From a virus: 64,000 nt of DNA. Position 1 is the stretch's first letter. Every line of letters begins with the position of its first letter. The stretch spans positions 11,684 through 75,683 of IMG/VR virus record IMGVR_UViG_3300036795_000241; one strand, written 5' to 3'. The position numbers and the translations under genes are program-made. Below are positions 38,686-54,716 of the stretch, piece after piece. The notes under the pieces are model-generated. The model did not search any database. It saw only the letters and a program-made list of their open reading frames with translations, and was not told where the DNA came from.

Positions 38686-39231
38686 TTGCTGTATGTCGGA
38701 ATAGACCCGGGGTCGATTTACACTGGGATCGCCGTATACAACGGTACCGAATTCACGCTATGGTGCGAGACAAGTGATCCAACGGCTATCTTCGATTTTA
38801 TCGATGATCTCCGCGCAGTTGAACCGATACACGTAGTGCTCGAAATAATGACGGGTGGCGGCGTCCGCGACAAGCACATTGTCCGCACCATCGAAGTCGT
38901 TGGCTACGTGTATCACGGGTGCCGGGAACGCGATGTCCCGATAACCCGAGTCCCGCAGCAGTTGCGGCTATCCGCGGTGTCGCAATTGCCGGACGCGATA
39001 AAGGGAAAGGACGAACGGTCAGCAGCGGCACACGCAATGGCGTTTGCCGAACGGACGGAGAGAAAGAATGCTCGAGCAAGCCAGCATCGAGGTGCGCCAC
39101 CACTTCGAGGCCGCACACCGGCTGTTCCTGACGTCGGGAAAGTGCGAAAATATCCACGGACACAGCTGGAAAGTCGCACTAGAGTTGACCGGTCTGGTCG
39201 ACTCCGCCAACGGAATGGTCGGCGCACTTGA
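38686..39231 (+). CDS. RuvC-like Holliday junction resolvase
   Basis: VGIDPG..TG, VVLE, D...A.AH; 3' end overlaps queD. Confidence 0.75.
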   Translation: MLYVGIDPGSIYTGIAVYNGTEFTLWCETSDPTAIFDFIDDLRAVEPIHVVLEIMTGGGVRDKHIVRTIEVVGYVYHGCRERDVPITRVPQQLRLSAVSQLPDAIKGKDERSAAAHAMAFAERTERKNARASQHRGAPPLRGRTPAVPDVGKVRKYPRTQLESRTRVDRSGRLRQRNGRRT

Positions 39232-39568
39232 CTTCAGCGACGTAAAGGGTTCGTTCCGTACGTATCTCGATAACGAGTTCGACCACCGATTGCTACTGCA
39301 CCGCGAAGACCCATTCGCCGGTCCACTGATCCACAGCTTCGAACACGATCTGGTCTCCGCAAAGCCGGACACGGGAAAGCTCGATTCACTCCCCGGTGTC
39401 TCGTGCTTCGATTACGACCCGACCACCGAGAACGTCGCACGGACGATCGGCGTCTGGGCCAGTGACGAGTTCGGGATGAATGCCGCACTTAGCGCGGTCC
39501 GCGTAACGGTTCACGAGACGGACGTAAATTCCGCGACGTGGATGACGGCACTTACAGGAGAAATGTAG
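39068..39568 (+). CDS. queD: 6-carboxytetrahydropterin synthase
   Basis: FEAAHRL, C.NIHGHSW, DF..VK, FDH, PTTEN, VHET. Confidence 0.92.
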   Translation: MLEQASIEVRHHFEAAHRLFLTSGKCENIHGHSWKVALELTGLVDSANGMVGALDFSDVKGSFRTYLDNEFDHRLLLHREDPFAGPLIHSFEHDLVSAKPDTGKLDSLPGVSCFDYDPTTENVARTIGVWASDEFGMNAALSAVRVTVHETDVNSATWMTALTGEM

Positions 39569-40342
39569 ATGACAACTGAGGCTCCGGCCCGAGATTGGCT
39601 GCTGGTATCCGAGCAGTTCCTCTCGCACCAGGGCGAAGGGCCGTCAACCGGGCGGCTCGCGAAATTCCTTCGCCTCGGCGGATGCAACCAAGCGTGCCAC
39701 TGGTGCGATACGCCATACTCGTGGGTCTATGACGATCGACACGTCGCACTTCACGATAGCGGGAAGAAGTACAATCCCGCGGAGGAGCTCAAGCGGCATC
39801 AGATCGGCGAGATCACGGAATGGCTAGCCACGCCGCCATTCGCACCGCTATGCGTGATCACTGGCGGTGAGCCGATGCTCCAGCGCGATCAGCTCGAACG
39901 AATGATCAGCGCCGCGAACGAGGAGCTCAACTACCGCTTCGAAATCGAAACCGCGGGAACGATTCATCCCGGTCCGTTGCTGCTGTTCCAGAACGTTGAC
40001 TACAACGTGTCCCCGAAGCTGGCGTCCAGTGGCAATCCGTATAAGCTACGGTATCAGCCCGAGGTGCTCCGCGCGTTCGCCGAATCGTGGGCCACGTTCA
40101 AGTTCGTGGTCGATACCCGCAAAGGGATGACCGCGGAAGTGCGTGACGATATCTCGGAGATCCGGCGAATCATCCGCGACTGCGAAATCCCGCCGCGTAA
40201 CGTCTGGCTAATGCCGTGCGGAACGATATCGCGGGAAGTGGTCGACGGGATGCGCGTCCTTGCCCCAGTGGCTGCCGAGTCCGGGTGGAACGTGAGCACG
40301 CGACTGCACATTCTTGCCTACGAGAACCAGCGGGGGATCTGA
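39569..40342 (+). CDS. queE: 7-carboxy-7-deazaguanine synthase (radical SAM)
   Basis: S.QGEG...G....FLRL.GCNQACHWCDT, ITGGEP, IETAG, VSPK. Confidence 0.93.
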   Translation: MTTEAPARDWLLVSEQFLSHQGEGPSTGRLAKFLRLGGCNQACHWCDTPYSWVYDDRHVALHDSGKKYNPAEELKRHQIGEITEWLATPPFAPLCVITGGEPMLQRDQLERMISAANEELNYRFEIETAGTIHPGPLLLFQNVDYNVSPKLASSGNPYKLRYQPEVLRAFAESWATFKFVVDTRKGMTAEVRDDISEIRRIIRDCEIPPRNVWLMPCGTISREVVDGMRVLAPVAAESGWNVSTRLHILAYENQRGI

Positions 40343-40920
40343 TGCTCGATAAGAACGTCGCCGAAATGGAATCGGCTGTCGGCTGGCTTCTCGATCAGCT
40401 CGGTTACGACCGAACGACCCAGCACTTCACCCGCACGCCGCAACGCGTAGCGAGAATGCTTTCCGAGTACGCGAAGAACGGTAGCGCGGATCGGGTGCGT
40501 GAGCTGCTCGGCGTTACGTTCATCGAACCCGGTGCGGTCTCGTCACTGGTCCTCGAAGGTCCGGTGGACTACGTCTCGATGTGCGCGCACCACATGCTCC
40601 CCGTAACCGGTACCGCCTGGATCGGTTATCTCCCCGCAAAGGCGGTATGCGGACTCTCGAAACTGGCGCGCGTGGTCGATCACTATGCGCATCAGCTAGG
40701 CGTACAGGAAGTGATCACGCAGCAGATAGCGGATGCACTGGTGGAACACCTCGAACCGATGGGCGCAATGGTCGTGGTCCGGGCACAGCACGGCTGCATG
40801 TCCACCCGTGGCGTAAGGCAGCCGCAAGCGTTTACGACCACTTCGGCGGTCCGCGGCGCGTTTAAGGAAAGTGCGGCCGCCCGCAACGAGTTCCTCCAGC
40901 TGATGCAAACGAAGGGCTAA
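40342..40920 (+). CDS. folE: GTP cyclohydrolase I
   Basis: TPQRVARM, SMCAHHMLP, GLSKLAR, QE..T.QIA, HGCM..RG. Confidence 0.95.
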   Translation: MLDKNVAEMESAVGWLLDQLGYDRTTQHFTRTPQRVARMLSEYAKNGSADRVRELLGVTFIEPGAVSSLVLEGPVDYVSMCAHHMLPVTGTAWIGYLPAKAVCGLSKLARVVDHYAHQLGVQEVITQQIADALVEHLEPMGAMVVVRAQHGCMSTRGVRQPQAFTTTSAVRGAFKESAAARNEFLQLMQTKG

Positions 40921-40926
40921 GGTAGC

Positions 40927-41745
40927 GTGAAGCTTGCGCACATCGTGCCAATCACGATGCTTACTGCGGTCCCGCGAACCGCGTCGGCGCACCTAACGAT
41001 TACGAATCTCGTGCTTAGCTGTCCGCGCTATCAGCGATTCTATCGTAAGCGAGCGCACGCGGGTGACCTAGTCATTCTCGACAATCCCGTCCACGAGAAT
41101 CAGCCAATCGATATCGGTAGCTGGCTCGAGGCAATCTCGATGCTCGAACCGACGGTGGCGATTGTCCCGGACGTAATTGACGATATCCCGATGACGGTAA
41201 ACCTCGCGCGGCACGCGGCGGGAATCGTATCCTCGCGGAAAGCAATCCTCCCGCAACCGGAGCTAATGGCGGTTCCGCATGGTCACACGCATGAAGAGTT
41301 CTACCAGTGCGCCGCTGAGCTGATCAAGATTCCCGGGATAACGTGGCTCGGGATTACCCTGGAACGGCGATTGAACGATGATCAACTCGCGCTAAAGCGT
41401 AGGCGTGAACGGCTGCGGATGCTCTCGTACGACCCGCTATTCTCGGGTACGAAGATCCACCTTCTCGGCGTTTCCGAGACCGCGGAGGAGCTCGGTGACG
41501 ATTCCGTATGGGAACGCGCGGTCAGCTGCGACACTTCGAAGTTCGCCGTATGGGCGCTTACCCGCAATCCGGTTGCGCCACCGGTTCCGCTTAGCACACC
41601 GTATCCCGGTCGCGAGATATTCGGCGGGAGCTACAATTACTACTGGGCGCACGGTTTGTCGTGGCCGGACCGGCGAAAGTTCACGCAGAATCTCGCCGAA
41701 TGGTCGCGCTATGCCCAGCGATACGACAGGAGCACGAACGAGTAA
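40927..41745 (+). CDS. TGT-fold transglycosylase, probable DpdA-type 7-deazaguanine insertion enzyme
   Basis: ILDN, PDV, AVPHG, HLLG and SCDTS motifs spaced like TGT barrels; sits between folE and queC. Confidence 0.65.
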   Translation: MKLAHIVPITMLTAVPRTASAHLTITNLVLSCPRYQRFYRKRAHAGDLVILDNPVHENQPIDIGSWLEAISMLEPTVAIVPDVIDDIPMTVNLARHAAGIVSSRKAILPQPELMAVPHGHTHEEFYQCAAELIKIPGITWLGITLERRLNDDQLALKRRRERLRMLSYDPLFSGTKIHLLGVSETAEELGDDSVWERAVSCDTSKFAVWALTRNPVAPPVPLSTPYPGREIFGGSYNYYWAHGLSWPDRRKFTQNLAEWSRYAQRYDRSTNE

Positions 41746-43097
41746 TGTCTGGAATCTTTGCGGCGATGGTGCATAGCCAGAGCGTGCCCTCGGCGCCACT
41801 TGAGCGGCTGGTCAAGGGTTCGCAGAAGCGCGGTAACGATGGCGTTAGTGTCGTAACGCTTAATCGGTCGTTTAGCCGCGTTTCGCGGAATCGCACATGG
41901 TACGACGTTAACGCGAAAACGGGCCGCGGAGTATTCCCGCCGGGCGTGTATGGCGTTCTCGGGTGTGCGTATTCCCGTCCCGCCGCGGGTGACCACGTTG
42001 CGCCGCCGTTCATCAATCGCGCTAGCTCGTGGTGCGTAACGGTCGATGGGGCAATTACGAACTGGTACGGACAGCAGCTTGCCGAACGGCTCCTCGTTGA
42101 CGAGTACGAGGACTGGACCGAATTCGTCGAGGACCTCGAAGGTCAGTTCGCGATTGTCGCGATGCATCGTGACGACCCACGTACGCTGTATTACGGCTGC
42201 AAGGCTAAGCCGCTCTACATGCTTTACGACCCGATCATGCACGCCGTTTACATCGCACAGCAGCCGGAGTACTTCTACGGGATGTACGATGAGTCGCGGA
42301 CTCCCCGTCCAGTGCGGCTGGGCCCGTATTCCTGCGGCGAAATCGCAGCCGATGGAAAGGTCCGTCCGGCGCATCCGTTGCGACACCGTTACGGCTCCGG
42401 TTCGCTGATGCTTTGCGGTGGCGGTCTCGACAGCACCGTAGCCGCGTGGGATAATGCGCAAACGTATGCCGATGACACGCTGCTAATGTACGTCGATTAC
42501 GGAGCGCGGGCGCGCGTGAAGGAGTGGCACGCGACGCAGTCACTGGCGGCCGCAATGGCCAGCCCGCACAGCGGATTGGTCGGCTCCACTGAAGCGGTAA
42601 AGGTGCCCTTCGATTTCTTTCGTAAGCATGTCGCCTCGCCACTGTTTCCGGGTGGCAAACCGGTATCTGAGCACCCTCAGCCCGGACAGGCTACGGAGTG
42701 GGTACCGGCACGGAATACCGTACTAATGGCACTGGCGGTGTCGTTTGCTGAATCTAACGGTCTGGCGCGGATCGTGACCGGGATCAATATGGAAGCGGCT
42801 GCCGCGTATCCGGATAACGAAGAAGAATGGCACCGTCGCTGGGAGCAGCTGCTACCGTATGCGGTAGGCGATGGCGCACAGATCGACCTGGAATCACCGC
42901 TTCGCGGTATGTCGAAAGCGGACATCGTAAGGCTCGGTGAGACGCTAAAGGTACCGTGGGGCACGGTCGATAGCTGGTCCTGCTATAACGGCGGGAAGAA
43001 TCACTGTGGCCAGTGCTCCAGCTGCCGAGCTCGTCGTGGCGCATTCGTCCGCGCGCAGATTCCGGACGTTACGCGATACACCAGGGAGCCGAAATGA
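41745..43097 (+). CDS. queC: GAT-QueC fusion (7-cyano-7-deazaguanine synthase with Ntn-amidotransferase-like domain)
   Basis: GGGLDS, VPARN, YPD, SK.DIV, SWSCY....HCGQCSSC..R; N-terminal MSGIF/RG.D. Confidence 0.88.
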   Translation: MSGIFAAMVHSQSVPSAPLERLVKGSQKRGNDGVSVVTLNRSFSRVSRNRTWYDVNAKTGRGVFPPGVYGVLGCAYSRPAAGDHVAPPFINRASSWCVTVDGAITNWYGQQLAERLLVDEYEDWTEFVEDLEGQFAIVAMHRDDPRTLYYGCKAKPLYMLYDPIMHAVYIAQQPEYFYGMYDESRTPRPVRLGPYSCGEIAADGKVRPAHPLRHRYGSGSLMLCGGGLDSTVAAWDNAQTYADDTLLMYVDYGARARVKEWHATQSLAAAMASPHSGLVGSTEAVKVPFDFFRKHVASPLFPGGKPVSEHPQPGQATEWVPARNTVLMALAVSFAESNGLARIVTGINMEAAAAYPDNEEEWHRRWEQLLPYAVGDGAQIDLESPLRGMSKADIVRLGETLKVPWGTVDSWSCYNGGKNHCGQCSSCRARRGAFVRAQIPDVTRYTREPK

Positions 43098-43718
43098 CCG
43101 AACCGCCGCCGATGAGCCAAGAGTCCGCTCAGCGAGTACAGGAGGTAATGAAAGAGGTCATTCAAACGAACGACGCAATGCCCGGGAAGTACGTTATCTT
43201 CGTTACCGCGGATGTCGTACCGGACGACCCGCAGGCGATTGTCGAATGGGAATGGTACTGGCGTCCGATAAATCGACATGCAGGCGGCGGTTAATGCAAG
43301 CGGAACTGGTCCCGGTAATCGTACGCGTTCAATTCACGTGCGGGAATCACCTGACGCCACTCAAGCCGAATCTTATGCGACTTGAGTACCGATGTCCAAT
43401 GCGCGGTTGCGACACACTGCTACGAAAGGAAGAACTGCACCGCTGGAACTTGCACTTTACGAACGCCTTTCCCGAGGTAATCGTCACTGGACGGAAGGAG
43501 ACGTTATGCCGCTCGGAATCTGCCAGCCGTGTCAGGACGGAGCGACCGAGATGCTACTGGGCAATACCGAATTCGCTACCCGCCTGCACGAGCAGTGCCC
43601 CGGCGGTACGTGGTGTCTATGCCACCATAGCGTAAGTGGCTCCGCGATGTCGGAGCAGGATCAGCTACGACGCAACTTGACAATCCGGGATACCCCGGCT
43701 ATACTTGAGGAACCATGA
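43094..43718 (+). CDS. Three short hypothetical genes
   Basis: Contiguous ORFs, some Cys-containing. Confidence 0.45.
43677..43705 (+). promoter_or_regulatory. Promoter for the NDT-like/polymerase genes (CGGC subclass)
   Basis: TTGACA-N17-TATACT. Confidence 0.75.
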
Positions 43719-44080
43719 CCACGGAGCGCATTTACATCTCGCACCACACGGAGAAGCTGCTCATTCCGTTCAAGCAGCAGCTCGAAGCACTCGGCTACGA
43801 AGTGACCAGCAACTTCGACAGCGAAGATCTGGTCGAGCACGTTAGCGACATTCGCGAAAGCGATGTCTTCGTGCTGTTCTTGGTCGGGCACGGTGCCCAG
43901 CTCAATCGTACCGTCGAATTCGGTATCGCAATCGGTCTCGAGAAGGTGCTCGTGTGCATCGGTGACGCCTACGAGAAGGACTACCCCGGACGGTCGTTCG
44001 TGAATCACTACCGCACCACCGAGCAGTTCCTCGCGGCATGGCGTACCGGTGAGCCGGAGTCGGGACTGGTCAGTGCGTAA
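43715..44080 (+). CDS. Nucleoside 2-deoxyribosyltransferase / dNMP N-glycosidase-like protein
   Basis: IYIS, L...GYEV, DI..SDV.V, VEFG.A..L.K pattern. Confidence 0.65.
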   Translation: MTTERIYISHHTEKLLIPFKQQLEALGYEVTSNFDSEDLVEHVSDIRESDVFVLFLVGHGAQLNRTVEFGIAIGLEKVLVCIGDAYEKDYPGRSFVNHYRTTEQFLAAWRTGEPESGLVSA

Positions 44081-46607
44081 ACGCGCTACCGCAGCATCCT
44101 GCGCGGACTGCCCCGAGGAGGGACCTGTCTGCGTTGGCGGATTCGGACCGGAGAAAGCGCGGCTGGTCATTGTCGGTGAGGCACCGGGTCACGACGAGTG
44201 CCTCACCGGCCGTCCGTTCATCGGGAAAAGCGGTCAGCTGCTTAACGCCACGCTGCAGAGCTACGGGATTAAGCGAACCGAGTGCTTCGCCACTAACTCC
44301 GTAATGTGCGCCGTTAAGCCGGGAACGCGGCACCATAACGCCTGCTGGTCGCGGTTGAAGTCCGAGATCCTTTCGCGCGAGCCCGAGATCGTGTTGACAC
44401 TGGGCAAGGCCGCCTTTTCGGCGGTATGTCGCACTCGCACGCCACTATCGAAGACCGATGGAACGTTGTGGTGGCAACCGGATTTCGGCGTGTACGTAAT
44501 GCCGACGTGGCATCCCGCTGCCGTACTTCGCGGTGGCGCCGATGACAAGTTCTTCCCGATGATCTCGAATGCGATATGGCGCATTTCCCGGCTACTGGAC
44601 GGACGGGATAAGTTCCCCGATCCGAATGGTCAGCCGGGATACAAGTGGACGTTCTTCCGCACCGCCGAAGGAACGATTCGGTGTGCGAAGTACTACCTGC
44701 GGAAAGCCGATTCCTCGCCAGTGCCATACGTGATCTCGGTCGACACCGAATCGCGGTCCCCGGGTAAGCGTCCGCATCCGGAGCAGGACCTATGGCTCAT
44801 GCTGCAGTTCTACGATGGCGATCGTGCCGCGGCAATCGACATGATCACGAATCAGACGCCAGAATCGTTGCGCTGGCTAATGAAGCTAATCCGGCATCCG
44901 AATGTCGAATGGGTCGGACATAACATTGCGACATACGACACCCGGGTGTTCCGGCATAACCTCGGGAAAGGCGTGCGGGATAGTAGTATCCGCGACACGC
45001 TGATCTACGGACTCGGATTGAGTGAGCGCGCCAACGCGGTTGGCTTGGAGCCACTGGCCCGAACGTGGCTAGGTGCCCCCGCGTACAAGCGCGGTCTCGC
45101 TGAATCGGGCTATCGGCACGCGAAGGGTCCGCAGAACGAGCTGCAGTGGAAGCAGCTGGCGAAGTATGGCGTGGACGATGTCTATAACACGTACGAGCTC
45201 AACCGTATTCTGCCTACGCTGGTCCGCGATGAGGGTACCGAAGATCTCGTCAACAATATCATCTTGCCGCTAGCACTTACGTGCGGTAAGCTAAGCGGAC
45301 GCGGGTTCCCGATTGACCTCGAGCAAGGAAAGCGACTCGAGGAGCTTTGGGGCGGACGCGTTGACGATACGGTTCATCGGCTACAGGAGCTAGCGATAAG
45401 CTCCGGGTGGCCAAAGGATCCGAATAACGCTAAGGCGAAAGACGGTCGACTCAACCCGCGAAGCCATTTGCAACTGGCGCATTTCGCTCTCGACTGCCTC
45501 GGTCTTGCGCCGACCGATGGCGCGACAAACCGTAAATATAGCGGAACCGCGAAGAATCTGCACGGTCGCTCGCGGTCAATTGACGCCGACTTTCTCGTCG
45601 GACATCAGGACACCGAATTCGGACAGCTGATGACGCTGCTGCGGGTATACGATAAGCAAGTGCGCACGTATGTCCGCGGTATTCTGAAAGAGCTCGACCC
45701 CGATGGCTTGATTCACCCGTCATTCGATATTGCGGGTACCGCGACCGGGCGCCTCGTGATTAAGCCGCTGCTGCAGGTGCTCCCGCACTATGGTGCGCAT
45801 GCGCAACTCGAGGAAGAGGACATCGCAAAGGAAGTGCGGAGGCTATTCCCCGCGCGCAAGGGCTATGTCATCGTTACGGCGGACTACAAGCAGCTGGAGT
45901 TCCGGGTCGCGTGGATGCTGTCCGGGGACCAGAAACTGGGCCATGCCCTTACCTCCGGTGATATGCACGCGAAAACGGCTGCGTACATGTTTAAGCGTGA
46001 CGAAAGCATCGTGACCAAGGCCGACCGGCATGCGGCCAAGCGGGTGTCCTTCGGTACCGCATACTGGCGCTCCGCGTACACACTGGCGAAGGGTCCCCTG
46101 CTCGAGGTGCTCGGTGGGATTACGATACCCGAAGGCGTGCGAATCGCCCGAGCGCAGCGGTTCATCGACGACTTCCGGGCGCTGTATTCCGATTACTATG
46201 CGTGGCAGCTGGAATCGGCGGATAGTGCCGTGCGTAACGGTGAACTGTCCACGGTATTCGGTCGCAAACGTCGCTGGCCACTGATCACGCACGACAACCG
46301 CGAAGAGATCCGCCGGCAAGGCGTGAACTATCCGATCCAGTCCACCGCCAGTGATATGTGCTCCAGTGCCCTCGTTCGACTAGCCGATGTGCTGCCGAAA
46401 CGCAAGCTCGGATTCCCGCTATACACCGTGCATGACGAGGTCGTTAGCGAGATCCGCGAAGACCGCCTTGACGAAGGAATTGCCGCGATCGCGGAGGTGA
46501 TGTCGAACCCAGCTATCGACACTAACGGGGCCGTGTTTCCCGTGGACGCTTCGTACGGTCCGAATCTCGGCGATCTTACGGGATACCAAATAAAGGTAGC
46601 AGCGTGA
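44073..46607 (+). CDS. Family A DNA polymerase with N-terminal family-4 UDG-like domain and 3'-5' exonuclease
   Basis: CxxC, GEAPG..E...G.PF.G.SG, TWHPA; DTE/HN...D/Y...D exo motifs; DYKQLE, K...FG..Y, VHDE. Confidence 0.93.
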   Translation: MRKRATAASCADCPEEGPVCVGGFGPEKARLVIVGEAPGHDECLTGRPFIGKSGQLLNATLQSYGIKRTECFATNSVMCAVKPGTRHHNACWSRLKSEILSREPEIVLTLGKAAFSAVCRTRTPLSKTDGTLWWQPDFGVYVMPTWHPAAVLRGGADDKFFPMISNAIWRISRLLDGRDKFPDPNGQPGYKWTFFRTAEGTIRCAKYYLRKADSSPVPYVISVDTESRSPGKRPHPEQDLWLMLQFYDGDRAAAIDMITNQTPESLRWLMKLIRHPNVEWVGHNIATYDTRVFRHNLGKGVRDSSIRDTLIYGLGLSERANAVGLEPLARTWLGAPAYKRGLAESGYRHAKGPQNELQWKQLAKYGVDDVYNTYELNRILPTLVRDEGTEDLVNNIILPLALTCGKLSGRGFPIDLEQGKRLEELWGGRVDDTVHRLQELAISSGWPKDPNNAKAKDGRLNPRSHLQLAHFALDCLGLAPTDGATNRKYSGTAKNLHGRSRSIDADFLVGHQDTEFGQLMTLLRVYDKQVRTYVRGILKELDPDGLIHPSFDIAGTATGRLVIKPLLQVLPHYGAHAQLEEEDIAKEVRRLFPARKGYVIVTADYKQLEFRVAWMLSGDQKLGHALTSGDMHAKTAAYMFKRDESIVTKADRHAAKRVSFGTAYWRSAYTLAKGPLLEVLGGITIPEGVRIARAQRFIDDFRALYSDYYAWQLESADSAVRNGELSTVFGRKRRWPLITHDNREEIRRQGVNYPIQSTASDMCSSALVRLADVLPKRKLGFPLYTVHDEVVSEIREDRLDEGIAAIAEVMSNPAIDTNGAVFPVDASYGPNLGDLTGYQIKVAA

Positions 46608-47212
46608 TTATCTCGCCACTGAAGCTCGTAATCAGTGCGCTGGCGGCCATTACCGCCGCAATTGTCGGAAGCTTTTTCGGGGATCAAGGAACACTAATCG
46701 GTGTCGCCACCGGCAGCGTTGTCTCGGGTGCCGCCGCGGGAGTATATGAGCATGTCGCCTCGAAAACGAAAGGAGTGATCAAGTTTGCCCCGCAGTACCG
46801 AAAGCTGCCACTGGCTGAACGACAGAAGTTGCTAAAGCGAATCGCAATTGCGTCCGGGGCCAGTGTCCTCGCTATCGGAACCGTTTCCGCCGCCGTAGTC
46901 GTCATCCCCGAGTTGGCCAGTGGGCGGACGCTACATAGCCTGACCACGGGAAAGGTGGACTACGGATCATCGTTCGGGAGCAGTTCGACGGTATCTCCGG
47001 CCCCAGTGCCAACGATCCGGTACACCCCGAGCGCAACGCCAAGCGTTACCGGAGGTACGCAATCAGCAGTACCGACAAGCCCAGTGACGCCTTCGCCGAG
47101 CTTCTCCGCGACATCCCCTTCGTCCGTGTCGCCGACCTCGGCCCCGCCGATTATACCTTCGTCCCTCTCGTCGCCACAAGCGACACCACTGGAAGGAACG
47201 CCGACCCCATGA
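46604..47212 (+). CDS. Membrane protein with Ser/Pro/Thr-rich tail
   Basis: Three hydrophobic segments. Confidence 0.65.
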   Translation: MIISPLKLVISALAAITAAIVGSFFGDQGTLIGVATGSVVSGAAAGVYEHVASKTKGVIKFAPQYRKLPLAERQKLLKRIAIASGASVLAIGTVSAAVVVIPELASGRTLHSLTTGKVDYGSSFGSSSTVSPAPVPTIRYTPSATPSVTGGTQSAVPTSPVTPSPSFSATSPSSVSPTSAPPIIPSSLSSPQATPLEGTPTP

Positions 47213-47796
47213 TCGACACAGTTGAACTCGAGATCCCGGTTCATCTGGCCCCGGCAATAGCGATTCTCGTTAAGACCGCCGTGCAGAAAGGAAGCGACTA
47301 CGCACGTGACGAGTGGAGCAGCAACTTCTCCGATACCGCCGACCACTTCGGCATCCCGCGTTACGAATCGTGCGACTTCAACGAGATTCAGAAGCTCGCA
47401 CGGCTGAAGAGCCTTCGTACCGGCCGAAAGGTGCTCAACGAGTCCGTCGAAGACACGTACCGGGACAAGGCGCTTTACGCCATTCTCGCATACGTGCTGT
47501 ATCTCGAAGAAGTGGCAGCTAGGCGCGGGGCCGAGAACGAAGAGAAGATGAGTGGCTTCCTCTATACCGAGGCGCCAAGCGAGTCCGTACTGGACGGGGA
47601 GCTCCCGTCCCGCGCGCAGGTGTCCACGCATATGCCGATCGAAGGTGACGGGGTCGACGCCTGGCTTCAGCGGATTCGTGGCGACTTCGATACCGATTCA
47701 CCGCAGTACGCGCTGCTTACCGAGATGATGGCGAAGTATCAGCGGCGTGCGGAGGAGGGTAAGTCCCTTTCGGAACCGGTTATATATCCGACTTGA
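47209..47796 (+). CDS. Nucleotide-modification-associated domain 1 (DUF1599-like) protein
   Basis: K..DY....NF, K..RL, NESV.DT..D.A.YAIL. Confidence 0.7.
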   Translation: MIDTVELEIPVHLAPAIAILVKTAVQKGSDYARDEWSSNFSDTADHFGIPRYESCDFNEIQKLARLKSLRTGRKVLNESVEDTYRDKALYAILAYVLYLEEVAARRGAENEEKMSGFLYTEAPSESVLDGELPSRAQVSTHMPIEGDGVDAWLQRIRGDFDTDSPQYALLTEMMAKYQRRAEEGKSLSEPVIYPT

Positions 47797-48657: not shown

Positions 48658-50170
48658 ATGGCAACAGTTCTCGGGACCAGGAACGCCGATGGAAGCGTCC
48701 AGATCGAGCGCGTGCTCACCCCGACCGAGGTCAAGAGCCGGCGGGGAAGTGTGAGCGAGAAGCGCGTTACCAGGTACCAGCAGGGCCGTGGCCGTCGGAC
48801 CCGGAGCGTGTACCAGGCAAGGGCACTGGGTTCCGGTCAGGGAGTGCTAGCCGCTCAGGACGCCGTGTTCACCGACAGCCCGCAGATCGACGAGTACCGG
48901 AGCGGGTTCCGGACCGCATGAGCGAATACCACGAGGTGCCCGGCACATTCCGATGTGCCGGGTGCGGGCGGGAGCACGCCAGCCACACCCCGCCGGTACA
49001 GATTGACTTCGAGCTTTACGCACCCGAGTGCGTTCCTGACAACTCCACCGCGACGGAGGGATAGCAATGGCACGAAGGACGGTTGTGCGCCGAAAGGCCA
49101 CCGGAAGCGTTACCGCACGGACCGCGGCCAGGCGCGCGGCGCGGAGACAGACCGAAACGATCCAGGTCCGCGCGGCCCGGCGGGTTGGCGGTGATGAGCC
49201 GGAAAGCGTTACGCAGGCCCGCACGTGGGACCGCAAGTACCGCCGGTATCTCGTGGCCGGGCTGTGCCACCCGTGCGCCGCAAAGGCATCGTGGGGCCAT
49301 TCGCTCGGATTCCAGAAGATCGATGACCCGTGCGCCAAGTGCCAGCCGATCGTGAACCAGTTCGCGACCCCCGGCCCCGAGGGTTCGAAGTGGCGTAAGG
49401 TCCTCGACAAGCTCGAGCGAAGCGTTACCCGTGAAGAGATGGAGGCGCTGCTTTGAAGCTCGCAGAACCGGCGGGTAAGCGCGGTGACCGAGTGCGTAAC
49501 GTGCATAGCAATCGCACGGCAACCGTGGAGCGCGTATCCGCGAACACGACATTCGTTATCTACGATGACGAACCCGGCGTAGAATACGGCGGAACGCATA
49601 GTGCGTTTGAACCGCTTTCGCCGAAGTAGGAGGAGCCGCACCGCGCCCCGGTCCGCCGGGGCTTCCGGTGTCTCCGAAGGTAACGGGCTACACCCCGCCG
49701 CGCTACCTACGCGAAACACGTCGCCCGATCCGTGTCCGAAGTGCGGTGCACTGGCGAACGAGCCATGCACGTACACGCAGGACCGCACGCAGATTCACCG
49801 CGATCCCGCCACGTGGGATTACGTGTGGAACGAGGGCGGTAAGCCGATGCAAATCATGCACCACGAACGACGGAGGAAAGCTATGACCGGATGCCCCGAC
49901 CCGACGCCACGCCCGGAGGACGGACAGACGTACACCGATTATGTCCTTCGCACGACCGGGAAGCCGGCGGACGCGGATCTCGTTACGCCGCCGAACGACT
50001 CGGAAACGACAACGCGACAGAAGGACAGCATCGCACACCAGCTAGTCGAACTCAGTTTCGACCCGCCGGCGTGGTTCGTAGCTAGCGCGTACCTGTCCGA
50101 CCTAAAGGCGCTGCTCCGTTACGTCCAGCGGGCTCACCTGCGCAAGGAGGCAGCGGAGAATGCTCGATAG
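48658..50170 (+). CDS. Run of short hypothetical genes (48658-48921, 49067-49456, 49601-50170 and others)
   Basis: ORFs after promoter 48577; CxxC motifs. Confidence 0.5.
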
Positions 50171-50651
50171 CCGCGATCCCGCCTGGATCTTCGACATCGA
50201 TGGCACGCTAGCGCATAACCGCAGCGGACGTAACATCGTCGACTATACACGCGTTAGCGAGGACGAGCCCGACGAAGCGGTGTTCCGGATCTGCCAAGCC
50301 CTCGTCGACAAAGGCGACACCGCGCTGTTCGTTACCGGTCGTGAGGACACGGAGCAGTGTCGACGCGATACCGAGCAGTTCCTGTACCTGAACCTCGACG
50401 TATTCGCGCTCGATCTCAGTCCGTATCTCTATATGCGCCCGGCAACCGAAAAGGATCGCTTCCGTAAAGGCGCCGAGCTCAAGCTCGAGATCTACCGCAC
50501 GCAGATCGAACCGAAGTACCGCGTTTTCGGCGTATTCGAAGATCTACCTACCGTGGTACACATGTGGCGCGAAGAGGCCGGGCTGTCCGTCTTCCAGTGC
50601 GCCTCAGTTCCTGAGCTCACTCCGGAGGAGGCGGCTAAGCGTGGACGATAG
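50160..50651 (+). CDS. HAD phosphatase (T4 PNK phosphatase-like)
   Basis: FDIDGTLA, VTGR, LYMR, K, FED...V.MWR..GL..FQ. Confidence 0.88.
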   Translation: MLDSRDPAWIFDIDGTLAHNRSGRNIVDYTRVSEDEPDEAVFRICQALVDKGDTALFVTGREDTEQCRRDTEQFLYLNLDVFALDLSPYLYMRPATEKDRFRKGAELKLEIYRTQIEPKYRVFGVFEDLPTVVHMWREEAGLSVFQCASVPELTPEEAAKRGR

Positions 50652-51495: not shown

Positions 51496-52134
51496 TTAGC
51501 AGCCGTCATACGGGGACCAGTTGAACTGTCCGCCGCGCGCCATCGCGTTGGCGAACACCTGGTTCTGCTCCGCCGCGCTGGCGTGTCCGAAGTCGGCACC
51601 GTTACCGCCGTAAACGACCCACGTGGAGTAGCTGAACTGGTATAGCCCGTAGTGACCGGTGGAGTTCATCACCTGCGTATTCCCGCCGGATTCCCGTGCG
51701 ATAACGCAGGCCTGGAAGCCGCTGTAGTTACTCGGGTTCACGGTAGCCGCCGGAGCCTGAATCGCTTTCGCAACGGGCGCCGGTACGGGAGCGGGAGCCT
51801 TCGGCATCGAGGTAACCGTTCCGGTAAGGGACAGTGCCGTACCGGGATAGATCAGATTCGGGTTCGCGATCTTCGCCTGGTTGAGCGCCCACAGGTACTG
51901 CCACTTCGCCGAGCTGCCGAGCTGGTTCTGTGCAATTCTGCTCAGCGTGTCACCGCTTCGGATGACGTAGTTTGTCGCACTGGCTAGCTGCGTTGCGAAG
52001 TGTCGTATCGGGTGAGTCGGAGTCGTGTAATTCGCGGGAATCGCTTGGACGGTCGTGCTCCCAGTGAGTGCGAACGGAAGGAGCACGTTAGCCAGCGTGA
52101 TTGCGGCTACGGCCATTAGGTAGAGCTTACGCAC
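51496..52134 (-). CDS. Secreted LysM + Rpf-like transglycosylase
   Basis: Signal peptide, YVIRSGDTLS.IA...NPNLIYPG, C...RESGG...GLYQF..STW...AS..EQ. Confidence 0.88.
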   Translation of the reverse strand: MRKLYLMAVAAITLANVLLPFALTGSTTVQAIPANYTTPTHPIRHFATQLASATNYVIRSGDTLSRIAQNQLGSSAKWQYLWALNQAKIANPNLIYPGTALSLTGTVTSMPKAPAPVPAPVAKAIQAPAATVNPSNYSGFQACVIARESGGNTQVMNSTGHYGLYQFSYSTWVVYGGNGADFGHASAAEQNQVFANAMARGGQFNWSPYDGC

Positions 52135-52235
52135 GATGCTAACCTTCTGTGTGTGATGTCGCCCTAACGAAAGGGTAGCTTATGCTTCGGGGTCACGGAA
52201 GCTAAGCGTACCCGAGGGCACTGGACGAGGAGATG

Positions 52236-53216
52236 CTACGGGTTGAGGTGATAACCGATCGGGGCTGCGCCAGTGTCGGTACGGTGCAGCACCACGCTGT
52301 TAACGTCCTGCTTCGATCCGAACGTGTACGTGAACGAGAAGCCCTTGGTCCCGTCCGGTAGCTTGATTTCGGTTACGAACGGCTCCGAAGCGGGGTGATT
52401 CACCGTTATCTCGACGGCCGGTGCGGCGCTCTGCAGCTTGTTCCAGTTCGGGGCCACGAAGACGATTTCGCTGAAGGTCCCGGCGAGCCACGACGGAACT
52501 GCGAACTGTCCGCCGCTAAGCGTTCCCTGTATCACGTTATCCTCATCTACGGTAGTAGGTTTCGGAGCCGGTACGGACCTGGTGGTAAGCATGCGCAGTT
52601 GTGCCGTAGTCATTCGAACTGCGGAGCAATCGACGGGACCGGCAAGACCGGGAACGATTGCCGCCGACGTGAACTGGAGCATCGTGACGCTTTTACCGCC
52701 GTACGAGTTCCAGTAGCTTGCGGGGACGTGCGAGTAAAGCGAGGACGGGCTACCCTGGTTCATCGTCGGGTACTTGCTCGCCCATAGCTCATCGAAGAAC
52801 GACAGATCGGTGTTGCCCCAGTACCACTGCGGCGGGTAGCCCCAGATCAGCGCGTTCGGGTAGAGAGTGCGCAGCCGACCAACGGCCTGGACCATGTCGA
52901 GCCGTACCGGATTCGACGTCTGCGTCGGTTCCGCATCCACGCCAACCAGAAAGCCGTCAAGGTTACCGGCTTTCGAGGCGAAGTAATCGGCCTGCGCTGC
53001 GCCGTTGTTGTGCTCGAGGAACATGTACGCACCCGGGACAAAGCCACTGGCTTTCGCGCGGGCGAGCATTGCGTTCTTCTGCCTCGGCCAGTACGGGTTT
53101 TCGTACCCCGTACCCTGCGTCACCTTCTCCCAGCCGAATTCGCAGATGGAATCGACACTAGTCCAGTCCACGTTGCCCTGGAAACTGGCGGCATCAATCC
53201 CGAAGATCTCCGTCAT
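52236..53216 (-). CDS. Endolysin, GH25 muramidase
   Basis: GIDAASFQG.VDW, KVTQGT, GAY.F, DAE, LWAS.Y, LQFTS, VD. Confidence 0.88.
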   Translation of the reverse strand: MTEIFGIDAASFQGNVDWTSVDSICEFGWEKVTQGTGYENPYWPRQKNAMLARAKASGFVPGAYMFLEHNNGAAQADYFASKAGNLDGFLVGVDAEPTQTSNPVRLDMVQAVGRLRTLYPNALIWGYPPQWYWGNTDLSFFDELWASKYPTMNQGSPSSLYSHVPASYWNSYGGKSVTMLQFTSAAIVPGLAGPVDCSAVRMTTAQLRMLTTRSVPAPKPTTVDEDNVIQGTLSGGQFAVPSWLAGTFSEIVFVAPNWNKLQSAAPAVEITVNHPASEPFVTEIKLPDGTKGFSFTYTFGSKQDVNSVVLHRTDTGAAPIGYHLNP

Positions 53217-54323: not shown

Positions 54324-54716
54324 CTAGCTACTCGGCGTAAACGGCATCGTATCCTGCATAGTAAAGAACGCACTCCCGCCGCCGAATACTTCGGACATAT
54401 TTGCTTCGTTAGCCCAGCCCCACTGGCGATTGACCACTACCGTAGCTTCAATGGCGGATGCTTCTACGCCGAGAAAGACTGCGAACAGCTGACAATATGC
54501 CGTAATCGCAGCCGTAATTGCCGCCTCCTTTTCCTGCTGATCAAAGTCACCGTAATTAATCGTCCAAGCGCCATCGACTTGACTGATGAAGTTGTAGTAC
54601 CAGCCGATACCGTTAATTCCGGACTCGTTATTCGGTACGGCGTAGTTTATAAAGCACTGGTAGTTAAGTGTCGCCACCTGCAGATTACTCGGTGCCGCGG
54701 GGAAGTTATTCGTCAT
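54324..54716 (-). CDS. Hypothetical protein after tail fibre (possible chaperone)
   Basis: AGGAG RBS; position. Confidence 0.55.
   Translation of the reverse strand: MTNNFPAAPSNLQVATLNYQCFINYAVPNNESGINGIGWYYNFISQVDGAWTINYGDFDQQEKEAAITAAITAYCQLFAVFLGVEASAIEATVVVNRQWGWANEANMSEVFGGGSAFFTMQDTMPFTPSS

Follow-up and report, generated by a model that had tools for sequence, protein, structure and literature searches.

Replacement of guanine by 7-deazaguanine derivatives in DNA is a major counter-defence of phages. A DpdA enzyme is present in all deazaguanine phages, and according to the published view all of these phages modify their DNA after replication (PMC10516641). In phage 9g, Gat-QueC together with DpdA leads to 2'-deoxyarchaeosine (dG+) in DNA, and QueC together with DpdA leads to dPreQ0 (PMC6884629). 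All three DpdA3 phages tested had 100% of their G replaced (PMC10516641); the route by which DpdA3 phages arrive at complete replacement is unproven. The locus described here lies in a 64,000-nt stretch of viral DNA (the window, bases 11684-75683 of the 75,683-bp IMG/VR virus record IMGVR_UViG_3300036795_000241) and forms a 7-deazaguanine module within a replication operon. The module probably serves a DpdA3-type exchange of bases at the level of DNA in a lytic soil phage, whose host is probably an actinobacterium.

Like the known DpdA3 systems (PMC10516641), the module combines FolE, QueD and QueE with a small (~260-aa) enzyme of the tRNA-guanine transglycosylase (TGT) fold devoid of a Zn module; a full-length profile match and a structural match to a phiST protein are further points in common, and guanine replacement at the DNA level would be expected in both. 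It differs from them in its occurrence in a soil phage, probably of an actinobacterial host, in its location directly upstream of a gene encoding a uracil-DNA glycosylase (UDG) domain fused to DNA polymerase A (UDG-PolA), and in its pairing with a Gat-QueC-type gene, where the known systems have QueC*, DpdL, or QueF with DpdN. Unlike the DpdA3 genes of CP220 and immuto, that of the window has no adjoining kinase or nucleoside triphosphate (NTP) hydrolase gene. In CP220 (L019, 3862-6355) DpdA3 has an HD/AAA protein on one side and a 'thymidylate kinase' on the other (gp055, gp057); in immuto (L015, 779-3426) its neighbours are a PRA-PH-type NTP pyrophosphohydrolase (NTP-PPase) and a thymidylate kinase.

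The dG+ system of phage 9g (Hutinet et al. 2019, PMC6884629) shares with the window the FolE, QueD, QueE, Gat-QueC and DpdA functions and also adjoins replication genes. Its transglycosylase is a DpdA1, whereas that of the window is DpdA3-like; its polymerase belongs to family B, whereas the window polymerase belongs to family A, and the window Gat domain has lost the Cys1, Arg and Asn residues. Weizmannia phage Youna2 and the Bacillus phage BSP7 group are a further case, with QueC, QueD, QueE, FolE and a DpdA3-like 'hypothetical protein' immediately before UDG-PolA, as in the window. In contrast to the latter, their hosts are Firmicutes, their QueC is plain, a P-loop (GxDxxGKST) protein precedes DpdA, and no DUF1599-like gene is located downstream of PolA. 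Youna2 and BSP7 are isolated, published phages whose DpdA3-like genes are unannotated (Youna2, L001, OM293949, 8956-9726; BSP7, L020, 4896-5684). The DNA of these two phages is probably deazaguanine-modified, though the records are silent on this point.

The sequence-only reading of the window had listed a queD-queE-folE-(TGT-like)-GAT-queC cluster, and all of these genes were found where it placed them, in the same order and all on the plus strand (Table 1); only its 'GAT-queC' has to be corrected, being one fused gene and not two. The presence of a complete deazaguanine pathway set within a replication module was likewise borne out by family matches and gene order. QueD, QueE, FolE, the TGT-fold transglycosylase and the Gat-QueC fusion are followed on the plus strand by two small open reading frames (ORFs), a gene with the nucleoside deoxyribosyltransferase (NDT) fold and UDG-PolA, and then by a membrane/low-complexity ORF and a divergent DUF1599/Nmad1 protein. 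QueE is 49-51% identical to its relatives, the true start of FolE is an ATG overlapping the QueE stop, and the ATG of Gat-QueC overlaps the stop of the preceding gene by one base. By homology, FolE, QueD and QueE would convert GTP to 7-carboxy-7-deazaguanine, from which the QueC domain of Gat-QueC would make a 7-substituted deazaguanine base. The 272-aa DpdA3-type enzyme of the TGT fold would then swap guanine in the phage DNA for this base, using the double-displacement Asp mechanism of DpdA and TGT, on nascent DNA or close behind its synthesis. The inserted base would more probably be preQ0 (dPreQ0 in DNA), possibly 7-amido-7-deazaguanine (ADG), the modified genome would be protected from restriction, and the DUF1599-like protein would act as a conserved accessory of the module.

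The transglycosylase, P0001, matched nothing in Pfam or PHROGs at normal thresholds; a word-index search retrieved 32 homologues with 42-52% identity, all of them metagenomic. Its AlphaFold2 model, built with the homologue alignment, is a confident TIM barrel (predicted local distance difference test, pLDDT, 92.5). The top PDB match in Foldseek is the DNA preQ0 insertase DpdA (7UI4, E 3.5e-7), followed by TGTs, which constitute most of the 180 PDB chains found at E<=1e-3, and one of the top matches among viral models (BFVD) is a Cellulophaga phiST protein (E 1.9e-10, template modelling score, TM, 0.73 on the target). The DpdA-family profile has no match among PDB sequences, the relation being visible through the fold search only. 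By hhalign the P0001 family matches the annotated DpdA3 of phage immuto at 97.8% (E 1.2e-12) over 250 columns, that is, along the full length, and the unannotated Youna2 protein at 98.5%; tblastn also connects P0001 with the DpdA3 references immuto (6e-5) and CP220 (1e-5), which as a group measure 258-264 aa versus 272 aa for P0001.

The phylogeny of this gene among the DpdA subfamilies, proposed in the sequence-only reading as a check, places it next to DpdA3 but in a separate clade. The window clade (support 94/92) adjoins the immuto+CP220 and Youna2+BSP7 groups and is not nested in them, the deep forks being unresolved; it is far from DpdA1 and DpdA4, and the DpdA1 of 9g and the DpdA4 of HVTV-1 sit on branches of seven to nine substitutions per site. 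DUF6610, which has been equated with DpdA4 (PMC10516641), gave weak Pfam matches in 22 of the 26 family members (best 2.4e-8), P0001 itself scoring 14.9 bits (cut-off 27). The DpdA4 assignment suggested by these matches was ruled out, as hhalign gave only 5% probability against the DpdA4 reference of halovirus HVTV-1 (HVTV1_69, gp69, taken from KC117377). The halovirus protein has the catalytic Asp/His pattern in common with the window family, to whose members the weak DUF6610 matches also link it, and differs in its length of 386 aa. P0001 is therefore not regarded as a DpdA4; on its profile matches and modelled fold it is filed as a putative DpdA3-like enzyme heading a new clade.

Four residues, D52, D82, H118 and D202, are invariant across 26 homologues of P0001 and align with identical residues in the DpdA3, DpdA1 and DpdA4 references. 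In the bacterial DpdA (bDpdA) Asp95 is the general acid/base and Asp256 the nucleophile, while Asp130 and His181 recognise the base (PMC10164549); from the order of the motifs we infer that D52, D202, D82 and H118 correspond to these catalytic and recognition residues. The Zn motif CXCX2CX22H was not found in P0001, which has no CxCxxC and only three Cys residues, none of them conserved. The motif is likewise missing from all phage DpdA references checked, including the validated DpdA1 of 9g, so its loss does not exclude P0001 from the phage DpdAs. Isoelectric points and Cys counts of DpdAs were uninformative.

The Gat-QueC of the window can be aligned end to end with that of phage 9g (30% identity, E 3e-43). 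In its QueC half the C-terminal Cys cluster WSCY...HCGxCxxCxxR is conserved, and the PP-loop reads GGGLDS, the usual form being SGGxDS. In the Gat domain MCSIFG of 9g is replaced by MSGIF, GNARAEP by GCAYSRP, and HNGTIAN by VDGAITN; three residues of class-II amidotransferases, Cys1 (now Ser), Arg, and Asn of HNG, are thus lost. Identical changes occur in the Gat domains of three related loci (L002, L011 and L026). In the more distant L024, L028 and L029 the Cys, Arg and HNG are all kept and the domain is canonical, and in L003-L010 the Gat domain has been lost and plain QueC is encoded. Between lineages the degenerate domain is 30-35% identical, versus 51-59% for the QueC half; compared with PDB sequences, the window domain has no amidotransferase match, and the canonical domain of L029 weakly matches GlmS. 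Class-II amidotransferases in which Cys1 is mutated to Ser lose glutaminase activity. From these changes we infer that the window Gat domain is glutaminase-dead, and for this reason the product base would be preQ0 (or ADG) rather than G+; dPreQ0, possibly ADG, is the more probable product in comparison with dG+/archaeosine. That Gat-QueC is nevertheless a working archaeosine synthase, using the Ser nucleophile or free ammonia, and that the DNA carries dG+ as in 9g, is considered unlikely. Its homology to the dG+-yielding enzyme of 9g extends over the full length and in four lineages the reading frame of the Gat domain has stayed open, but this domain diverges more rapidly than the QueC half, has been deleted in sister phages and, unlike its canonical relative, has no sequence match to any solved amidotransferase. 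Hydrolases of the N-terminal nucleophile type that use Ser do exist; here, however, the change of Cys1, with the loss of glutaminase it brings in class-II mutants, came together with changes of Arg in GNxRxEPT and of Asn in HNG. The amidotransferase on QueC thus occurs in canonical, degenerate and deleted states, a natural series for studying the function of the domain and the resulting base.

Ten related IMG/VR loci were retrieved with the DpdA alignment, and their gene content was established by tblastn. Their common order is AAA24-endonuclease-SSB-RuvC-QueD-QueE-FolE-DpdA-(Gat)QueC-small Cys-rich ORF-UDG/PolA-DUF1599-like-DUF2786 (SSB, single-stranded DNA-binding protein), and in every relative the module is located directly between the recombination/SSB genes and the DNA polymerase. 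This location argues against an explanation in which the cluster serves tRNA modification (of the queuosine or archaeosine type) or supplies preQ0 to the host, and does not act on DNA. The enzymes are common to the tRNA pathway and the TGT fold is shared, but no QueF, QueA, QueG or ArcS was found among the ORFs scanned, and the transglycosylase, which has neither the C-terminal nor the Zn module of TGT, falls in with DpdA3 of the DNA type; a role in tRNA is hardly credible.

The sequence-only reading had also coupled the cluster to enzymes of the nucleotide pool: an NDT-like gene directly before the polymerase, a DUF1599/Nmad1 gene two genes past it, and MazG-like and HAD phosphatase genes elsewhere. 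The coupling to NDT, MazG and HAD enzymes turned out to be mostly unsupported. The NDT-like gene is indeed located directly before the polymerase gene and was recognised by its fold, its Pfam score being sub-threshold (13 bits against PF05014, cut-off 28.8). The AlphaFold2 model of its product, P0002 (pLDDT 79.6), has the NDT of C. thermalis as its best Foldseek match (E 1.5e-6), with the nucleotide N-glycosidases MilB, BcmB and DNPH1 also matched and TIR domains lower, and NDT clusters of ESM Atlas match it with TM 0.76-0.79. At the superfamily level 'NDT-like' is, by the model, the right name for P0002, which may be a transferase or a glycosidase. Remote homologues number three among 1.8 billion representatives; E68 in RxVE[FY]GxA is invariant in P0002 and these three (four sequences), its residue-level equivalence to the NDT Glu being putative. 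None of the ten module-bearing loci contains a match to the gene, the intergenic space there being too short for it, and sequence comparison marks the NDT-like protein as a recent, dispensable add-on of this one phage.

The HAD gene does exist, but what it encodes is the phosphatase domain of a polynucleotide kinase/phosphatase, of the end-repair type and no obvious nucleotide-pool enzyme; it has no match in L010 and L026, the two relatives reaching past g49067 (ORF 49067-49456, just upstream). A MazG-like gene was not recovered: PF03819 has no match in the genome, and PF12643 gives only 13.3 bits (E 0.006) at 54387-54518 on the minus strand, inside a late-region ORF with no Pfam, NCBIfam or PHROG matches.

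Of the NDT-like, HAD, 'MazG' and DUF1599-like genes, only the last proved to be a real companion of the module, though not an exclusive one. A second search for loci, seeded solely with the DUF1599-like domain, yielded 14, and 12 of them carry QueD/E-FolE-DpdA3-like and UDG-PolA genes; these 12 include lineages whose DpdA is only 26-31% and PolA only 25-38% identical to those of the window. In L032, which makes the association non-exclusive, que genes are absent and the gene is found amid those for primase, helicase, class-II ribonucleotide reductase (RNR) and ThyX. In L027 (3219-4369) it is situated between FolE and the DpdA3-like gene, and not after PolA. The window protein, P0003, was found two genes past the polymerase as claimed; its own score against PF07659 is 18-19.6 bits (cut-off 25), all 11 members of its family match PF07659 (best E 2.7e-7), and its ESM Atlas features agree with DUF1599 (0.94). 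The DUF1599-like profile had chance-level matches only among PDB sequences and no similarity to the NTP-PPase of immuto or two ORFs of BSP7, tblastn with P0003 found none in isolate phages, and nothing useful turned up in the DUF1599/Nmad1 literature.

On the nucleotide-pool genes the sequence-only reading had built the proposal that a deaza-dG nucleotide may be made before replication and dGTP depleted, or else an uncharacterised derivative be made. Worked out in full, the base would be put on deoxyribose by the NDT-like enzyme or by the DpdA3-like barrel acting on dG, dGMP or dGTP, the DUF1599-like protein would clear dGTP, and UDG-PolA would incorporate the modified dNTP. A route of this kind requires the base to be placed on deoxyribose and phosphorylated to the triphosphate, and dGTP to be removed. 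The complete genome was searched and encodes neither a thymidylate/dNMP nor a deoxynucleoside kinase, and HD phosphohydrolases and MazG are likewise absent; among credible genes only those of two helicases and the AAA_24 protein have Walker-A motifs, and no small Walker-A protein was found. With these enzymes missing and NDT and HAD unsupported, the enzymes for base-to-dNTP conversion and dGTP removal are therefore judged not to be encoded, and the missing kinase weakens the nucleotide route in the window lineage, unless host enzymes substitute. P-loop kinases and NTP phosphohydrolases do flank DpdA3 in the references (CP220, immuto, Youna2 and BSP7), but the window genome has no counterpart of them. 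P0002, the only candidate for converting base to nucleoside, does have an NDT fold and an invariant Glu, but its gene has just three remote homologues and is missing from the ten relatives. The DUF1599-like gene occurs with the module in 12 of the 14 loci, in L027 even between FolE and DpdA, but its profile is unlike the immuto NTP-PPase and the L032 copy lies among replication and RNR genes without any que gene. Hutinet et al. kept the modified-dGTP and deoxyribosyltransferase options open (PMC6884629), but TGT-fold enzymes with the Asp residues that the window enzyme carries have polynucleotide substrates wherever tested (PMC10164549). Pre-replicative synthesis is therefore held to be quite unlikely in this phage.

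Base exchange on DNA by the DpdA3-like enzyme is thus the preferred explanation, and since this enzyme is DpdA3-like and DpdA3 phages are fully modified, guanine replacement in the window phage may be extensive. Several points weigh against DNA-level exchange. The action of DpdA3 on DNA has never been demonstrated, heterologous tests having failed (PMC10516641), even though DpdA3 phages reach complete replacement, a combination that fits the pre-replicative route as well. The kinases and NTP hydrolases adjoining DpdA3 in the references hint at nucleotide-level chemistry in the subfamily; P0001 is only 23-30% identical to these references and forms its own clade; and the product base is made uncertain by the GGGLDS loop and by the pseudo-Gat domain that the protein still carries.

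A bolder variant of DNA-level exchange can be put forward as a speculation, its probability being low. The DpdA3-like barrel, UDG-PolA and the DUF1599-like protein would together constitute a replication-coupled machine replacing most or all guanines, with the dead Gat domain serving as a scaffold or sensor that sets preQ0 or ADG as the base, unlike that of 9g; the DUF1599-like protein would either remove dGTP/dGMP or hand the exchange enzyme to the replisome. If true, this would mean that complete G replacement can do without the nucleotide kinase found beside DpdA3 in other phages, and would provide the first function for DUF1599/Nmad1.

The 75,683-bp record from which the window is taken was rated 100% complete by CheckV. 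A soil metagenome is the sole public run found to contain the virus and is probably its source; no RNA run was listed for it. The terminase shares ~40% identity with Streptomyces phage terminases, and the late genes of the minus strand encode, among others, a Mu-type portal, a GH25 lysin and a LysM + Rpf-type transglycosylase; these sequences make actinobacteria the likely host. In the lysis region (51496-53216, minus strand) the GH25 muramidase is followed by the LysM + Rpf-type transglycosylase protein, which is consistent with an actinobacterial host. A search of 185,579 prokaryote species, each represented by a single genome, did not find the DpdA family, and no prophage or host link emerged; because relatives of this key gene are absent from these genomes, the phage looks like a member of a lytic, uncultured lineage. 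Among 50,697 phage records, megablast found no match to the region.

The early genes, on the plus strand, span ~7 kb to 51 kb. Those preceding the que cluster encode an SNF2 helicase, a PD-(D/E)XK nuclease, an exonuclease, a D5-type primase-helicase, a RecD-like helicase, an AAA_24 ATPase, a resolvase-type endonuclease, SSB and a RuvC-like protein. The ORF of the latter (38686-39231) overlaps the start of QueD (39068) by ~160 nt, and a similar overlap is present in L003 and L009; the explanation is either a long out-of-frame tail on the resolvase or a wrongly called start in one of the two genes. Between Gat-QueC and the polymerase, the small Cys-rich ORF (pattern C.PC...LG...H..C..C.C.H) was matched by tblastn at the same position in L002, L008-L011 and L026 and had no match in family libraries. 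In the UDG domain of PolA (44049-44560) the motifs GEAPG and HPAA of family 4 are retained, together with several Cys residues; the domain may thus still be active as a glycosylase, or be a uracil/base sensor carried by the polymerase. The membrane/low-complexity ORF P0005, absent from the ten related loci, may be a recent insertion or a non-gene, and its relevance is doubtful.

Table 1. Genes and ORFs of the 7-deazaguanine module and its surroundings, with positions in the 64,000-nt window.
Feature	Position	Strand	Basis of assignment
QueD (6-carboxytetrahydropterin synthase)	39068..39568	+	PF01242 (PTPS) E 1e-26; TIGR03367 2.7e-21; ATG 39068 inside ORF opening at 39044
QueE (radical-SAM 7-carboxy-7-deazaguanine synthase)	39569..40342	+	PF04055 2.8e-10; five top NCBIfam matches are QueE models, best 1.3e-21
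FolE (GTP cyclohydrolase I)	40342..40920	+	PF01227 (GTP_cyclohydroI) 6.4e-55; NF006826 4e-56, exceeding the cut-off
Putative DpdA3-like guanine transglycosylase (P0001, 272 aa)	40927..41745	+	Fold, profile, conserved residues
Gat-QueC fusion	41745..43097	+	Degenerate class-II amidotransferase-like domain (~41745-42389) and QueC domain (PF06508 8e-41)
Small unassigned ORF	43094..43294	+	ORF list only; no tblastn match in relatives
Small Cys-rich zinc-finger-like ORF	43392..43718 (probable start 43506)	+	tblastn conservation just upstream of PolA
NDT-superfamily protein (P0002, 121 aa)	43715..44080	+	Predicted fold; directly precedes the polymerase gene
DNA polymerase A with N-terminal family-4-type UDG domain and 3'-5' exonuclease	44049..46607	+	PF00476 5.8e-55; PF03167 3.4e-25; PF01612 8.4e-10
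Transmembrane-helix ORF with Ser/Thr/Pro-rich tail (P0005)	46604..47212	+	Translation; no match in relatives
DUF1599/Nmad1-like protein (P0003, 195 aa)	47209..47796	+	PF07659 E 0.0012-0.0034, sub-threshold; conserved domain is residues 1-105
HAD gene	50160..50651		HAD_PNKP 9e-29; phrog_505 1e-31

The module is a diverged form of the known DpdA3-type anti-restriction system. It extends the DpdA3-like enzymes to soil phages, probably of actinobacterial hosts, in which they are missed by the current Pfam and PHROG models. For the question of nucleotide-pool enzymes its main value is negative, as the link to NDT, MazG and HAD fails. As a DpdA3-type module without a kinase and with a constant DUF1599/Nmad1 partner, it offers a clean system for distinguishing exchange at the level of DNA from exchange at the level of nucleotides.

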